Shown here one piece after another: positions 2,833 through 29,412 of a stretch of 35,687 nt of DNA; within the stretch, counting starts at the first letter, position 1; each line of letters begins with the position of its first letter. Location of the stretch: positions 1 to 35,687 of the forward strand of contig JAUVLY010000001.1 in NCBI GenBank assembly GCA_030600505.1. Reading direction: 5' to 3'. The position numbers and the translations under genes were made by a program. The notes beneath the pieces were generated by a model. The model was given only the letters and a program-made list of their open reading frames with translations, had not been told where the DNA came from and ran no database searches. Source of the DNA: Candidatus Falkowbacteria bacterium (GTDB taxonomy: Bacteria; Patescibacteriota; Patescibacteriia; Patescibacteriales; UBA12075).

Positions 2833-4617
2833 ATGATGAATAAATATTATTCCCTCACACAGACATTGCAATGCGGCCATGCTTCATCTCAAAAAATTGC
2901 TATTTCAAGTGATGGTGTCTTTCTTGTTTCGGGACTATGGAGCGGCATAATTGACATTTGGCAATTATCTTCAAATGCAATACTTTACCGATATAACGAA
3001 CATTCCGAAGCAATTACTGATTTAGCAGTAACGCATGATAAAAAGGTAATTTCAGCTTCTTACGATGGTGATATTTGTATCTGGGATATAGACATGGGAG
3101 AAAGGATTTATAAAACCAAAAAATTCGGAGTAATCAAAAAAATAATTATATCCGATGACGGCGAATATGTCGGCCTTGTTAACTCAAGTAACAGGATAAG
3201 GTTTTTAAACCTTAATGATTTTAGAGATGATTTTTCAATATCAACCAAGACAAGAGAGATTACAAGTATAATTTCTCACAAAAATGGAAAATACTATATC
3301 ATTGGTTCGTTTACGGGCGAAATAGAGATTTGGGATAATCAAAATTTCAGAAGTATTTGTATGTTTAGGGCTCATAATGAACCGATTACAGGTTTAACAA
3401 CAGACATACAAGGTACAATATACTCAGCATTTTGGGACTGTACGGTAAAAGCATGGGATATTAATTGGCTTCAAAAAGTCAAGCAGAAAGGTGTTTTTAA
3501 AGGACACTCAAGTTGGATTTTAGACATTGACGTTGCAGCTGACAACACGCTGATTACATGCTCAACAGATAGGACGATCAGAACATGGGACATTGCGAAA
3601 TATTCGGAAAAAGAAGTGCTATTCGGCCATGCCGCCCCCGTTATATCCATATCCATATTTTTACCAGAACAAACTATCATATCAAGTTCAGCTGACCATA
3701 CCATAAAAATCTGGGAGAGAGAAAGAAATTGCAAGGAAGATCAATTCCACAAAAATTCAGTCTGGGGAGTAAAATTCGATTCAAAAAGCAAAACGGTTAT
3801 TTCTTCATCGGCAGACAGATCTATTGGTCTTTATTGGCTAGACAGCAAAAAATGCAAACAACTAAACGGTCATCGAAGTTGGGTAAATAATTCTTCTATT
3901 TCCCATAAAGGAGATTTTGCGATATCAGCCTCGGCTGATAATCAGCTAATGATTTGGGATATCGAATCAGGATGCCGCACGAATACCCTGCTGGGACATT
4001 CAAGGTGGGTAAACGATGTTGTGATTTCCCAAAATGATATGATCGCAATTTCTGGATCGGCTGACAGGACTGTACGAGGATGGGATTTGAAAAGTAAGGT
4101 CGAAAAATTTTTATTAATTGGACACAAATGTCAAGTAACTTCAGTTGACTTAACGAGTGATAATTCTCTGGCTATTTCTGCTTCCGCTGACCATACCATA
4201 AAAATTTGGAGACTTTCTGATCAGAAAAATATCAAAACTTTAACTGGCCACAATGGGGCCGTAACTTCAATTTCTCTGGCGCATGAGAGTAATATTATTA
4301 TCTCCGGCTCCTTGGACGGATCACTTAGATTATGGGATTTTAAAAACCATAATGAATCCGAAATTCTTCAAAACGACGTTCAGAGAATTTGGTATGTTTC
4401 AATAACACCAAATGCCGAAAGGGCTGTATCTATTTCCGGAATGTTTATATATTTATGGGATGTCAAAAATAAAACCTTAATATACAAACATGCCAACAAG
4501 TGCATTTTTACAGCCTGCGCCATTTCGCCCGACGGGAGACTGTTTATCGGCGCCGATTTATTTGGCAAACTTCACTTATTTGGTGTTAAAAAGGAGAAAA
4601 AAATTGGCACAATATGA
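2833..4617 (+). CDS. WD40-repeat protein, about 14 repeats (two 7-bladed propellers predicted)
   Basis: 594-aa ORF. I count 14 repeat ends of type IxIW[DEQR] (IWQL, IWDI, IWDN, AWDI, TWDI, IWER, IWDI, GWDL, IWRL, LWDF, LWDV and others), several preceded by GH. AGGAGG lies at 2825-2830, so the second ATG at 2836 may be the real start. Confidence 0.85.
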   Translation: MMNKYYSLTQTLQCGHASSQKIAISSDGVFLVSGLWSGIIDIWQLSSNAILYRYNEHSEAITDLAVTHDKKVISASYDGDICIWDIDMGERIYKTKKFGVIKKIIISDDGEYVGLVNSSNRIRFLNLNDFRDDFSISTKTREITSIISHKNGKYYIIGSFTGEIEIWDNQNFRSICMFRAHNEPITGLTTDIQGTIYSAFWDCTVKAWDINWLQKVKQKGVFKGHSSWILDIDVAADNTLITCSTDRTIRTWDIAKYSEKEVLFGHAAPVISISIFLPEQTIISSSADHTIKIWERERNCKEDQFHKNSVWGVKFDSKSKTVISSSADRSIGLYWLDSKKCKQLNGHRSWVNNSSISHKGDFAISASADNQLMIWDIESGCRTNTLLGHSRWVNDVVISQNDMIAISGSADRTVRGWDLKSKVEKFLLIGHKCQVTSVDLTSDNSLAISASADHTIKIWRLSDQKNIKTLTGHNGAVTSISLAHESNIIISGSLDGSLRLWDFKNHNESEILQNDVQRIWYVSITPNAERAVSISGMFIYLWDVKNKTLIYKHANKCIFTACAISPDGRLFIGADLFGKLHLFGVKKEKKIGTI

Positions 4618-5091: not shown

Positions 5092-5126
5092 CAAATAAAA
5101 AACACTGGCAAAAGCCAGTATTTTTT
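5092..5126. terminator. bidirectional hairpin terminator (ends the minus-strand tRNA transcript)
   Basis: ACTGGC (5104-5109) pairs with GCCAGT (5114-5119). T-run 5121-5126 on the + strand. On the minus strand it is followed by GUUUUUUAUUU. Confidence 0.6.
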
Positions 5127-5253
5127 ATTTGCTCCCGGGGTCGGATTCGAACCGACGACCAATTGGTTACACTTTACCCCCTGGTTTCCCAGAGGAGTGG
5201 ACTATATCATCATCCTTTGATTAAAATAAGGATGCGAGGCGCTTCCCCCTACC

Positions 5254-5290
5254 TCACCCCAGCCCTCTCCTTCTAAAGGAGAGGGGGTGA
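5254..5290. repeat. GC-rich nested palindrome (REP-like) inside the intron periphery
   Basis: CCCTCTCCTT (5263-5272) pairs with AAGGAGAGGG (5276-5285). Outer pair TCACC (5254-5258) with GGTGA (5286-5290). Same word family as 18211-18280. Confidence 0.6.
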
Positions 5291-5429
5291 AATAAGAGTA
5301 CTCTCTTTCGAGATAGTCTCTGAACCTGCCCCGATTGCTCGGGGATTGGCTGCTGATTACCTTGTCCATTAAAGACGATAAGAGATTTAGGCTTCCAGAC
5401 AGTTCACCTCGTTATTCGACCATGATTGC

Positions 5430-5738
5430 TCATGGAAGCTGCGTTAACCGTTCGTGCACTTCTCGATGGCAATTGGCGCATAATAATTCACATTTATCTA
5501 ACTCTTTTTTAACTTCTTTCCAGCTTCTGGTATATCCTTTAGCTGATATTCCGAAGTCTTTATTATTTTCATCAGTATGATGAAAATCAAGAGCTTGGAT
5601 GCATTTATTATACCCACAAATTGTACATTGAGCGCCTTTGTATTCAATTGCCATTCGGCGGATTTTTTTCCGCCGTTTTGTAACAGCCATTTTTAAATAC
5701 TCAGCACGATCGGCATAAGTACGATTATCCTTTGCCAT
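5430..5738 (-). CDS. HNH homing endonuclease (intron-encoded)
   Basis: 102-aa ORF with a Cys-pair zinc knuckle and HNH core: CTICGY...LDFHHTDENNKDFGIS...LLCANCHREVH. Lies entirely inside the intron. Confidence 0.85.
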   Translation of the reverse strand: MAKDNRTYADRAEYLKMAVTKRRKKIRRMAIEYKGAQCTICGYNKCIQALDFHHTDENNKDFGISAKGYTRSWKEVKKELDKCELLCANCHREVHERLTQLP

Positions 5739-5863
5739 ATTTTTTATAAGGAAAGGCGATTAGTGTACACAGCCAACTGCGCTACCGCTGCGCTACCCGG
5801 GAATAATTGATTGTTAATTTATGTTTATTTTAAACATAAAACCTGCCCTTTGGCAGCGCTTAT

Positions 5864-5892
5864 ATAATACATAATTATTTTAAAATAGTCAA
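5864..5892 (-). promoter_or_regulatory. putative promoter of the tRNA-Asn gene
   Basis: Minus strand reads TTGACT (5887-5892), 17-nt spacer, TATTAT (5864-5869), about 60 nt upstream of tRNA position 1. Confidence 0.4.
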
Positions 5893-26483: not shown

Positions 26484-27917
26484 ATGGATAAAAATAAATT
26501 TTATATAACTACAACCCTGCCGTATGTGAATGCCAATCCGCATATTGGTTTTGCGGCTGAGATTATTCGGGCCGATGTGCTGGCCAGATTTGCCCGCATG
26601 CAGAGCAAGGATGTATTTTTTAATACCGGTACGGATGAACATGGATTAAAACTATTCACCAAAGCCAAAAAGCAGGGAATTGAAGTAAAAAAATATTGTG
26701 ATAAATACGCGGCTAAATTTGATAATCTTAAAAAAGCGCTTAATTTGAGTTATGATAATTTTATCCGTACCACTGACGAGCATCACATAAAAGCGGCGCA
26801 GGAATTTTGGAAACGATGCGATGTCAACGGCGATATCTATAAAAAAAATTATAAGATGAAATATTGTATTGGCTGTGAATCAGTTAAGACCGATTCTGAG
26901 CTTGATAAAGGTGAATGTCCTGATCACCCGGGTAAAAAGATAGAGATCATTGAAGAAGAAAATTATTTTTTCAAATGGTCAAATTATCAGGAAAAGCTAT
27001 TAAAATTTTATAAAAAAAATTCTGATTTTGTTGTTCCAGGCCATAGATTAAATGAAATAAGAAAATTTGTAGAACGAGGGTTGGAGGATTTTAGTATTTC
27101 AAGATTAAAAAGCAAGATGCCATGGGGGGTGCCGGTTCCCGGGGACGATGAACATGTTATGTATGTCTGGTTTGACGCTTTGGTTAATTATGTATCCGCT
27201 TTGGGCTGGCCCAATGAAGACGGTAAATATAAAGAATTTTGGCCAGGCATGCAAGTGGCGGGTAAGGATAATCTAAGGTTCCAAACAGCCATGTGGCAAG
27301 CCATGCTCATGTCTGCCGGCCTGCCTAATTCTACGCAAGTGCTTATTTTTGGTTTTATAACTTCAGGCGGACAAAAAATGAGCAAATCAATCGGCAATGT
27401 TGTTAACCCGCTTGATCTGGTTGAGCGGTATGGTACAGATGCAACGCGTTATTATCTACTGGCTGAGCTTAAGCCTTTTGAAGACTCAGATTATACAAAA
27501 GAAAAATTTGAAACAAGGTATATGGCCGATCTGGCAAATGGCATTGGTAATTTAGTTGCCCGTACTTCAAATTTGCTTGAAAAGAATGAGATTGAGCTGG
27601 ATATAAAACCAGGAAGCGACAAGGAATTGTTAGGAGCAATAAATTTACAAATGCAAAAATATTGCTTTGATGAAGCTTTAAAAGTACTTTGGGCAAAGTT
27701 AAGGGAAATGGATGAGTTTATTACAGCCAAAGCGCCCTGGAAAATAAAAGATAAAAATGAAATAAAAAAAGTATTAGAAGTAGTTGCTCAGAATATTTTA
27801 AATGTGTCTGTGTTATTACAGCCTTTTATGCCAGCCACTGCCGATAAGATAATGAAGCAATTTAGTGAGCAGCAAATCAAAAAAGGCGAGTCGTTATTTC
27901 CGCGATTAGAAAATTAA
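26484..27917 (+). CDS. metG: methionine--tRNA ligase (short form, no C-terminal tRNA-binding appendix)
   Basis: 477 aa. HIGH-type motif NPHIGF. Zinc knuckle CIGCESV...CPDHPG. KMSKS motif present. The start is 1 nt after the NUDIX stop. Confidence 0.9.
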   Translation: MDKNKFYITTTLPYVNANPHIGFAAEIIRADVLARFARMQSKDVFFNTGTDEHGLKLFTKAKKQGIEVKKYCDKYAAKFDNLKKALNLSYDNFIRTTDEHHIKAAQEFWKRCDVNGDIYKKNYKMKYCIGCESVKTDSELDKGECPDHPGKKIEIIEEENYFFKWSNYQEKLLKFYKKNSDFVVPGHRLNEIRKFVERGLEDFSISRLKSKMPWGVPVPGDDEHVMYVWFDALVNYVSALGWPNEDGKYKEFWPGMQVAGKDNLRFQTAMWQAMLMSAGLPNSTQVLIFGFITSGGQKMSKSIGNVVNPLDLVERYGTDATRYYLLAELKPFEDSDYTKEKFETRYMADLANGIGNLVARTSNLLEKNEIELDIKPGSDKELLGAINLQMQKYCFDEALKVLWAKLREMDEFITAKAPWKIKDKNEIKKVLEVVAQNILNVSVLLQPFMPATADKIMKQFSEQQIKKGESLFPRLEN

Positions 27918-27993: not shown

Positions 27994-29412
27994 ATGAACA
28001 AAACAAAGATCATTTCATTTATTCTTGTTTCCAGCTTTGTTATGGCTGGTTTTGCCGGAGCCACCTGCACTACTTGCGGAACTGAGGAAACCCCCGTCAG
28101 TAGCGTTAACTCTATTACCCTTACAGGAGAGGGTGCGAATATTAGCTGGAGTGTGGATGGTTATTCAAGCAAGGGTTTTAAAGTGTCCTGGTCAAAGAAT
28201 TCCGGGCCGACTTATCCGACCAGGAGTGGGGACAAATATCATTATTATTCCAGTCCCAGCCAAACTTCAGACACTCTAACGGCTTTTTCCGGTGACGGCA
28301 CATATTACGTGCGGGTTTGCGAATATTTAAGTGGAAAGTGTGGCGTTTATTCTAATGAGATCAGCGTAGTATTAGGTGATGGCACAAGCGATGAGCCAGT
28401 CGCCTGCACTATGGAATATGATCCGGTTTGCGGCAAAGACGGCAAGACTTATTCAAATAAGTGCATGGCCGAGGCCGCCGGGACATATAAAGCTTATTAC
28501 GGCGAATGTACAAATACCTCCGGTGGAGTTGAGTCAATTACTTTAATAAGCAAAGGAGAGTCAGCAATAAAATGGAGCGTAGACGGATACAGTACTAAAG
28601 GCTTTAAAGTCGTTTGGTCTAAGAACGAGCATCCGACATATCCGACCAGAGAGGGCGACAAATACAAATATTTTTCTGACCCAAATTATTATTACACAGT
28701 TTTGTCTGCTTTTTCCGGTGATGGTACATACTATGTCCGCGTCTGTGAATATCTGGGCGGTGCGTGCGGCGTGTATTCAAATGAAATAGCAATTACACTG
28801 GAAAGCGACGCACAGATAAAAGACATAGAGGAAAATGCAAAAACATTAGTTAATAATGATTTGGAGAAAATTTTGGCTGAGCTCCAGGAGCTAAGAAATT
28901 TGGTTAGGGAACAACAGACGCAAATACTTCACTTGCAAAAGCTGCTTATTGGCGTTGCGGCCGTAACCGACGCCATGCAGAATTCAATTAACAGTTTTAT
29001 CACCTATGGCGTGGATGACAATACTAAAAGATTGGGCGAAGGGGAGCGGGCCGCAGTAATGTATTCTTTTAAATCTGCTTTTGGCAAATTGCCGGAAGAT
29101 GAGACGGAAATGGCGGACGCGATCAAAATCGCCAATGGCCGCTGGCCAATTAAAATCAGTGAGGCCGCGGAAAACAAGGCTAAGGAAAAATTTGAGTTTA
29201 TTTACAAACGCGCGGCCAGCGCGGGCCAGGTAAACGATGACGCGGCCGTGGTAGTCATGGCCTATGGCCTGCGGCAAAAAGCCGAGAACCGGAATCTTAA
29301 TTCAGAAAAAAACGGCCTAAAGATTTTTAAAGATATTTATGGTTATCTACCGGAATCAACCGAAGATTGGAATATCTTGCAAGCCATAACTTATAGTGGC
29401 GCTACAAGATAA
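27994..29412 (+). CDS. secreted protein: two paralogous beta-domains flanking a Kazal-like domain, plus a helical C-terminal region
   Basis: 472 aa with a signal peptide. Repeat 1 at 28105-28377 and repeat 2 at 28528-28803 share ...WSVDGYS.KGFKV.WSKN..PTYPTR.GDKY.Y...FSGDGTYYVRVCEYL.G.CGVYSNEI. Kazal-like CTMEYDPVCGKDGKTYSNKCMAEAAGTYKAYYGEC lies at 28405-28509. Confidence 0.75.
   Translation: MNKTKIISFILVSSFVMAGFAGATCTTCGTEETPVSSVNSITLTGEGANISWSVDGYSSKGFKVSWSKNSGPTYPTRSGDKYHYYSSPSQTSDTLTAFSGDGTYYVRVCEYLSGKCGVYSNEISVVLGDGTSDEPVACTMEYDPVCGKDGKTYSNKCMAEAAGTYKAYYGECTNTSGGVESITLISKGESAIKWSVDGYSTKGFKVVWSKNEHPTYPTREGDKYKYFSDPNYYYTVLSAFSGDGTYYVRVCEYLGGACGVYSNEIAITLESDAQIKDIEENAKTLVNNDLEKILAELQELRNLVREQQTQILHLQKLLIGVAAVTDAMQNSINSFITYGVDDNTKRLGEGERAAVMYSFKSAFGKLPEDETEMADAIKIANGRWPIKISEAAENKAKEKFEFIYKRAASAGQVNDDAAVVVMAYGLRQKAENRNLNSEKNGLKIFKDIYGYLPESTEDWNILQAITYSGATR

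Follow-up and report, generated by a model that had tools for sequence, protein, structure and literature searches.

The DNA analysed here, a 35,687-nt contig of a Candidatus Falkowbacteria bacterium (assembly GCA_030600505.1, contig JAUVLY010000001.1) that is called the window in what follows, carries on its minus strand a tRNA-Asn(GUU) gene split in the anticodon loop by a 599-nt group I intron. The intron in turn contains a short open reading frame (ORF) for an HNH endonuclease. The parts of the locus are as follows.

5769..5802, minus strand: tRNA-Asn 5' exon, 34 nt, tRNA positions 1-35, ending C32 U33 G34 U35
5170..5768, minus strand: group I intron, 599 nt, from G1 (5768) to omega-G (5170)
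5430..5738, minus strand: HNH endonuclease ORF, 102 amino acids (aa), filling the loop of P1
5132..5169, minus strand: tRNA-Asn 3' exon, 38 nt, U36 to the discriminator G73; CCA is not encoded

The Rfam group I intron model, RF00028, matches the intron over the full length of the model with 79 bits (E = 1.2e-18; gathering score 50) and is the sole Rfam family detected in the 35.7-kb window. Given the joined halves, ARAGORN returns a 73-nt cloverleaf, tRNA-Asn(gtt), with U1-A72, G73 and the loop CUGUUAA. U1-A72 with G73 is what we take to be the bacterial tRNA-Asn signature, as in E. coli tRNA-Asn. G34, U35, U36 and G73 are the identity elements for asparagine charging, and all four can be read in the sequence of the joined tRNA. 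A preliminary description of this DNA had placed the split tRNA-Asn(GUU) gene at 5132-5802, with this cloverleaf, U as the last nucleotide of the 5' exon and G as that of the intron, and had proposed a covariance-model scan as a check. Its coordinates and terminal nucleotides hold, and the RF00028 match is significant. The 5' exon is identical or near-identical in at least 25 other loci.

Run with default settings, ARAGORN finds no tRNA in the window, and it reports no other tRNA gene on the contig. In intron mode, a further check that had been proposed, it does recover an intron of 599 nt, but it sets this intron 2 nt upstream and names the gene tRNA-Thr(tgt), i(33,599). Seven related loci (L001, L003, L005-L009) receive the same call, Thr(tgt) with i(33,N). 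The two candidate junctions are alike in that the exon ends in U and the intron in G, so that the ambiguity is real at the level of sequence. Comparative data overrule the Thr name. Only the GUU junction restores the intron-less allele, and the Thr(UGU) call is an artefact of the 2-nt placement. The U.G wobble lies at the GUU junction in 24 of 24 members of the intron family described below, whereas at the alternative site the U faces an A; P9.0 (AC/GU) abuts G5170, not G5172. The preliminary description had itself allowed that a UGU junction would change the identity of the tRNA; these observations, with the 94 uninterrupted genes described below, all of which read GUU, rule the UGU junction out and uphold the GUU junction that it had chosen.

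Ribozyme core and subgroup

The structural elements of the intron were assigned as follows.

5768..5774, minus strand: P1 5' strand, exon G30-U35 plus intron G1 (GGCUGU followed by G)
5445..5449, minus strand: candidate P10 guide GGUUA, complementary to UAACC of the 3' exon
5437..5443, minus strand: internal guide sequence (IGS), the P1 3' strand, CGCAGCU
5420..5435, minus strand: P2 hairpin with GCAA loop; compensatory changes in 6 of 6 pairs
5405..5411, minus strand: P3 5' strand, CGAGGUG; 3 of 7 pairs compensatory, 99% paired
5325..5401, minus strand: P4-P5-P6/P6a domain, P6a loop GCAA; compensatory changes in P4 and P6a
5314..5320, minus strand: P7 5' strand, G-A-GACUA with bulged A, end of the R element; invariant, 100% paired with 5199-5204
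5302..5313, minus strand: P7.1 hairpin, UCUC-GAAA-GAGA; 2 of 4 pairs compensatory; position and signature as in T4 td P7.1
5246..5298, minus strand: P7.2, with a long GC-rich extension hairpin; base pairs covary
5235..5241, minus strand: P3 3' strand, CGCCUCG, from the family alignment
5211..5234, minus strand: P8 hairpin; 5 of 7 pairs compensatory
5199..5210, minus strand: J8/7 and P7 3' strand (S element), AUGAUA-UAGUCC
5170..5198, minus strand: P9.0, P9 and omega-G; AC 5198-5197 with GU 5172-5171, omega-G at 5170

The fold was examined in a structure alignment of 24 distinct family members (343 columns), with the P1-loop insert removed from the long ones. An explicit secondary structure was written on the window row and then scored over the 24 sequences. 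Standard pairs occupy 95.2% of the alignment cells, against 33-45% when the partners are slid by 1-3 columns, and compensatory (both-side) changes occur in 34 of the 68 pairs; not one column shuffle out of 500 attains any of these values. P2, P3, P4, P6a, P7.1, P7.2, P8 and P9 each contain compensatory changes (in the P9 hairpin, 5196-5177 with a GAAA loop, at 5 of 8 pairs), while P1, the basal part of P6, P7 and P9.0 are invariant and paired throughout. The core helices P3-P8, with the P3/P7 pseudoknot, are upheld by covariation, and the window shares every invariant column of the alignment. Thermodynamic folding of the window core recovers P2, P3, P6a, P7.1, P7.2, P8 and P9 (z = -3.8 relative to shuffled sequences). 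The extension of P7.2, CACCCC-CUCUCC-UUUAGAA-GGAGAG-GGCU-GGGGUG, folds as a long hairpin; it occurs once only in the window and in none of the 23 aligned relatives.

Most of the elements first picked out by eye are borne out by the alignment. P1 had been drawn as GCAGCU (5442-5437) paired with exon GGCUGU, with a U.G wobble at the splice site; it is one pair longer (intron G1 with C5443), its 7 pairs are 100% paired in the 24 sequences and the splice-site U.G is invariant. To the three GNRA loops already listed (P2 GCAA, P6a GCAA and P9 GAAA), P7.1 adds a fourth (GAAA). The Q, R and S elements lie where they had been placed (5358-5348, 5326-5314 and 5210-5199 of the minus strand, respectively), and so does the invariant P7 formed by GACUA and UAGUC. 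The proposed P10 fares less well. GGUUA is perfectly complementary to UAACC, with which the 3' exon begins, but the pairing is not conserved: the closest relative (L055, whose protein is 94% identical) has GGAUA, and others have GCAUA, GUAUU, something similar or nothing comparable. The complementarity is a property of the window rather than of the intron family. Because P10 is not conserved, the 3' exon is presumably aligned by the anticodon stem instead; Zaug et al. reportedly found in 1993 that in tRNA introns it is the exon-exon pairing of the anticodon stem that aligns the 3' exon.

Compared with the Rfam consensus the intron contains 70 extra nucleotides at model position 148/149, after the P7 5' strand and ahead of the P3 3' strand. 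In all 24 members the insertion at this place consists of two covarying hairpins, P7.1 and P7.2, around an invariant GUA. When the T4 td intron, whose database record classes it as group IA, is aligned to the same RF00028 model, its P7.1-GUA-P7.2 falls at this model position as well, flanked by P7 and P3'; its sequence there, GACUA-UCCC..GGGA-GUA-GG.., is nearly that of the window intron, and its J8/7-P7 segment is also similar (GAUAUAGUC). P7.1 and P7.2 between P7 and P3' define subgroup IA in the Michel-Westhof classification. Since P7.1 and P7.2 lie where T4 td (IA2) has them, the ribozyme appears to be IA2-like (phage-type) and not of the classical tRNA-intron type, as judged from these two hairpins. 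T4 td resembles the apparently mobile window intron further in being mobile and in carrying its homing-endonuclease ORF in a peripheral loop. It differs from the window intron in its host, a phage protein-coding gene, in its ORF, which encodes a GIY-YIG enzyme (I-TevI) and lies elsewhere in the intron than in the P1 loop, and in its lower RF00028 score (40 bits against 79).

Group I introns have been known in the anticodon loops of bacterial tRNAs since 1990. The classical hosts are cyanobacterial and plastid tRNA-Leu(UAA), cyanobacterial tRNA-fMet, Azoarcus tRNA-Ile(CAU) and Agrobacterium tRNA-Arg(CCU), and these bacterial tRNA introns (Leu, fMet, Ile and Arg) belong to subgroup IC3, which is not known to have P7.1/P7.2. 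Most of them have no ORF; the intron of Synechocystis tRNA-fMet encodes I-Ssp6803I, from a nuclease family other than HNH. The window intron resembles them in building P1 from nucleotides of the anticodon loop and anticodon stem and in the sporadic distribution of its family, as with lateral spread. It also shares with IC3 introns the insertion in a bacterial tRNA anticodon loop, here between U35 and U36. It differs in its host, tRNA-Asn, in the site, 35/36, in the presence of P7.1/P7.2 and in an HNH ORF that lies in the P1 loop and overlaps the guide sequence. The compact core without P7.1/P7.2 that characterizes IC3 is not seen in the window intron.

The HNH reading frame and its phage relatives

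The ORF matches HNH-endonuclease families of PHROG with E = 4e-30 and 6e-25. The motif CxxC...FHH...N...CANCH is conserved in all intact copies. Among eight intact copies the pairwise ratio of non-synonymous to synonymous substitution (dN/dS) is 0.05-0.23, with dS ~1 or saturated, so that the protein is maintained by purifying selection. More than 2,300 relatives are found at E <= 0.001, and the best 120 of these have 68-95% identity; there is no exact copy of the 102-aa protein in the assembly index.

The ORF had been described as lying in the P1 loop. It does fill this loop, but its last four codons and the stop run on into the IGS and P2: the final codons UUA ACG CAG CUU CCA UGA (L-T-Q-L-P-stop) serve at the same time as IGS and as P2 5' strand. 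The guide sequence lies 325 nt from the 5' splice site in the window, against 9-33 nt in ORF-less relatives. The TQLP tail is conserved because the last codons double as guide sequence and P2 5' strand. As the end of the ORF is guide sequence plus half of P2, a ribosome completing the ORF and the formation of P1 and P2 would be mutually exclusive on one RNA molecule. The HNH protein would therefore probably be made from excised intron RNA or from an unspliced fraction of the precursor.

Free-standing HNH genes of phages (Lak megaphages, T5-like phages and entries of IMG/VR) share a homologous core with the window protein, with 44-63% amino-acid identity, and in Lak phages the DNA is 72-74% identical to the HNH gene over 190 nt. 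The phage genes are tied physically to tRNA genes, often tRNA-Asn. There are tRNAs within 1.5 kb of the HNH gene in 17 of 22 IMG/VR loci (L139-L160), and tRNA-Asn directly adjoins it in L139-141, L147 and L156-158, with two flanking copies in L139-141. In Lak megaphages a homologue of ~215 aa follows immediately after tRNA-Asn; the two Lak proteins that were translated differ from the window protein in this length (~215 aa) and in having extra N- and C-terminal regions. T4 SegB, in the tRNA region of T4, is a functional analogue of these phage tRNA-cluster HNH genes (PMC2330249). None of 17 phage loci (15 from IMG/VR) has an RF00028 match, and the idea that the Lak HNH copies are group I intron ORFs was rejected, their loci being without a group I match.

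Individual phage loci vary. In Lak-A2 (L131) the tRNA-Asn gene (1276-1350) is intact and the HNH gene starts at 1354. Prevotella phage Lak-B1 (L132, MK250020.1, ~1136-1351) has a tRNA-Asn gene split at 35/36, in which ..GACTGT is followed by ~143 nt and then by TAATCAGA... The ~143-nt insert has no group I match at either gathering or relaxed thresholds; it contains a T-arm-like GGTTCGAATCC, and an HNH ORF of ~215 aa follows from 1356. Three IMG/VR loci (L135, L136 and L138) hold a tRNA with the D-arm and anticodon-stem sequence of the tRNA-Asn of the candidate phyla radiation (CPR), a different acceptor stem and the loop CUUUUAA (anticodon UUU, Lys-like).

Distribution of the intron family

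The DNA around four of the closest HNH relatives gave nine loci (L001-L009). The complete element, made up of the 34-nt tRNA half, the ORF, the RF00028 core and the other tRNA half, is present in 7 of the 9; L002 and L004 end before the 3' end of the element. Six of the 7 complete loci pass the Rfam gathering score (67-101 bits), and the seventh, L007, is missing from the RF00028 table although its intron sequence is identical to that of L005. A wider scan covered one genome per species (GTDB representatives) with a pattern consisting of the D arm and anticodon stem followed either by the loop (GUU or UGU) or by the start of the intron, and gave at least 119 loci, holding 120 matches. Among the 120 matches listed, 94 are uninterrupted and all read GGCU-GUU-AACC, none UGU, and 26 are interrupted directly after GGCUGU, at the 35/36 site used in the window. 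More than 25 independent assemblies share the architecture of the window locus. The insertion point between positions 35 and 36 had been read correctly from the window; the view that tRNA host, site and HNH ORF make an uncommon combination does not survive, the combination being common in Patescibacteria.

The relatives and the genome scan together give 28 distinct introns, of which 24 entered the alignment; by length they fall into two classes. The short class (~230-320 nt) has no intact HNH ORF, and the long class (~485-610 nt) has an HNH ORF or its decayed remnant. Intact ORFs are present in the window, L055, L001/L014, L003, L005, L009, L064 and L070, decayed ones in L066 and L092; the short forms that lack an intact HNH ORF number 18. 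Of these ORF-less forms, L069 keeps CGTCGTGAAGTGCACGAAGG, which codes for part of the conserved HREVHEG tail, and in L117 the guide sequence is fused to ATGGCAAAAGAT. Empty, ORF-containing, ORF-decayed and ORF-less states would make up a full homing cycle of invasion, decay and loss, as expected of a homing element.

No assembly has both an interrupted and an uninterrupted copy among the matches listed, and the genomes of Verrucomicrobia, Kiritimatiellia and Lentisphaerae that have this anticodon arm contribute none of the interrupted copies listed. Within the same list the metagenome-assembled genomes (MAGs) with interrupted genes are labelled as Patescibacteria lineages (18), 'bacterium' (1) and 'uncultured Gammaproteobacteria' (7). 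An intron spanning several phyla was considered and rejected: in many of the 'Gammaproteobacteria' MAGs RpoD is 68-87% identical to Parcubacteria RpoD, with the same gene order. Parcubacteria-like RpoD and the order rpoD-then-tRNA-Asn are found in 5 of the 7 interrupted 'Gammaproteobacteria' loci, and these labels look wrong, the genomes probably being Patescibacteria. MAGs named 'uncultured Gammaproteobacteria bacterium' that have a Parcubacteria-like RpoD include L013, L016, L023, L033, L052, L056, L092, L123 and L128, among others. One IMG/VR entry of 16 kb (L137, IMGVR_UViG_3300025600_000123) has, with its match at 1233-1255, a tRNA-Asn gene into which an ORF-less member of the tRNA-Asn 35/36 family is inserted; the entry is either a phage that carries this gene or a CPR contig wrongly filed among the viruses.

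The host of the window is Patescibacteria too. The nearest named relatives of its MetRS (26484-27917), with ~73% identity, are from Candidatus Parcubacteria, Falkowbacteria and 'Patescibacteria group', all of them CPR. Other genes on the contig include one for a 594-aa multi-WD40 beta-propeller protein (2833-4617, plus strand) and one for a 472-aa protein (27994-29412, plus strand) that contains a protease-inhibitor domain of the Kazal type, both domain types more typical of eukaryotes, and one or more PAS-kinase genes. A cyanobacterial origin, or one in a symbiont of amoebae, to which these gene types had seemed to point, was rejected on the evidence of MetRS. Samples SRR18936874 and SRR18936875 have a gene in common with the contig.

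Introns in the structural RNA genes of this phylum are not new. Patescibacteria/CPR genomes are rich in rRNA and tRNA introns, and a 2021 paper on the finishing of CPR genomes reports that some CPR tRNAs carry group I introns and that complete CPR genomes have tRNA sets for all amino acids only once such introns are allowed for (PMC8172020). Classical tRNA introns have caused 'missing tRNA' calls in standard tRNA finders (PMC8450103, PMC3984707), and the authors of tRNAscan-SE name group I introns as the reason behind 'missing' fMet and Ile2 genes (PMC8450103). No mention of tRNA-Asn as a group I intron host was found in the literature, a search that did not cover a 2025 preprint (10.1101/2025.07.03.662931); it turned up only unrelated organelle or cyanobacterial papers on tRNA-Asn and group I introns. 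Inserts of 22-49 nt in cyanobacterial tRNAs that have been termed 'group I introns' (PMC5733544) were not used as a comparison. The tRNA-Asn 35/36 intron is a further case of a known phenomenon and has possibly been catalogued already, since any systematic survey would meet so common an intron. What sets it apart is the 35/36 site in tRNA-Asn, together with an IA2-like core and a small P1-loop HNH ORF that overlaps the guide.

Interpretation of the locus

The gene is flanked by signals of its own.

5864..5892, minus strand: promoter-like site TTGACT-17-TATTAT, 10 of 12 consensus positions, by consensus match alone
5092..5119, minus strand: terminator-like hairpin and U-run, directly 3' of the tRNA

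A second terminator-like hairpin with a U-run, CUGCC-AAAG-GGCAG-GUUUUAUGUU (5843-5856, minus strand), falls between the promoter-like site (5892-5864) and the start of the tRNA (5802). It could attenuate transcription, or the true promoter could be closer to the gene.

Very probably the locus is an apparently mobile, self-splicing group I intron with an HNH gene, inserted between U35 and U36 of a Patescibacteria tRNA-Asn(GUU) gene; its splicing and homing are inferred. The pre-tRNA would be transcribed as a single RNA that begins at the promoter-like site of the gene and stops at its terminator. CGCAGCU, ~325 nt into the intron, would pair with GGCUGU and G1 as P1, with U35.G marking the 5' splice site, and an external guanosine would attack there. 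Omega-G5170, placed by P9.0 and P7, would then be exchanged in and the free 3'-OH of U35 would attack the 3' splice site, the predicted ligated product having the loop CUGUUAA of a normal tRNA-Asn. The 102-aa HNH protein is most likely a homing endonuclease that would cut or nick the intron-less tRNA-Asn gene, into which repair would copy the intron. The target would be the following.

Putative target site in the intron-less tRNA-Asn allele: GGCTGTTAACC; duplex form ...GCAGTTGGCTGTTAACCAATTGG...

Several observations weigh against this reading. On the side of the ribozyme, the P10 pairing is not conserved among relatives and P1 must close over a loop of ~310 nt that holds the ORF. On the side of the protein, the match to Pfam HNH (PF01844) reaches 18.3 bits, under the cut-off of 21.4, and a sequence search against the PDB returned only noise, so that no solved structure matches the HNH protein. 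The 102-aa protein is also without a recognizable DNA-binding extension, unlike its ~215-aa phage relatives, and site-specific cleavage is for this reason not assured.

It is improbable that the intron is a dead relic that does not splice, the split gene being a pseudogene and asparagine decoding being left to another tRNA-Asn gene. Such a gene could lie elsewhere, since no more than 35.7 kb of the genome is visible; splicing is a prediction from sequence, and ORFs are decaying in some relatives (L066 and L092). The window, however, keeps every invariant core position and every helix, its ORF is intact and under purifying selection, and none of the assemblies in the list combines an interrupted with an uninterrupted copy. 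The tRNA sets of complete CPR genomes, which are full only with group I introns allowed (PMC8172020), also speak for a working intron.

There is a slim chance that the intron splices and the HNH protein is something other than a homing endonuclease for the tRNA-Asn site (an inactive passenger, a splicing helper or a nuclease with another target), with spread mainly vertical or by recombination of the whole locus. The small size of the protein, which lacks the C-terminal DNA-binding region of the phage relatives, and the Pfam score below threshold would fit such a role, and the exons are conserved enough for whole-locus recombination to move the intron. Against it stand the purifying selection on the ORF, the CxxC...HH...N...CxxCH motif kept in all intact copies and the mixture of empty, ORF-containing, decayed and ORF-less alleles, which is the classical signature of a homing endonuclease; the free-standing phage relatives beside tRNA genes, often tRNA-Asn, fit a target in a tRNA gene.

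A tRNA-Thr(UGU) gene, with GGCU ending the 5' exon, an intron running from GUGUACAC... to AAAG and UGUAACC opening the 3' exon, can be regarded as already effectively refuted: it has the ARAGORN intron-mode calls for the window and seven relatives, the exon-U/intron-G ends of its junction and a G at -3 that is invariant across the family on its side, but 0 of the 120 listed genes with the same tRNA body read UGU and 94 read GUU, its exon U would pair with A where the invariant U.G sits at the GUU junction, P9.0 adjoins G5170 rather than G5172, and U1-A72 with G73 is, as in E. coli tRNA-Asn, presumably an asparagine signature.

A wider reading, built on the mobile self-splicing intron, joins these observations, and we offer it tentatively, as a possibility with the odds somewhat against it. 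A distinct, phylum-wide IA2-like lineage may have colonized the anticodon of Patescibacteria tRNA-Asn and captured a small HNH nuclease from the pool that resides in phage tRNA clusters. A single RNA could yield either the nuclease or the spliced tRNA but not both, all asparagine decoding would hinge on a ribozyme in a sizeable fraction of these minimal genomes, and the split tRNA-Asn of Lak-B1 would be a second outcome of the same nuclease-target relationship.

The family ties a phage-type ribozyme and a nuclease lineage of phage tRNA clusters to a bacterial tRNA gene, and in the overlap of its guide sequence with the end of the ORF it offers a compact example in which translation would compete with RNA folding. 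It supplies dozens of natural variants, with all stages of the life cycle of a homing endonuclease at one 11-nt target. For annotation it is a pitfall: tRNA finders miss or mis-name the gene, and Patescibacteria that carry the intron seem to be without tRNA-Asn. Should the organism have no tRNA-Asn gene besides the split one, every asparagine codon would depend on a ribozyme.

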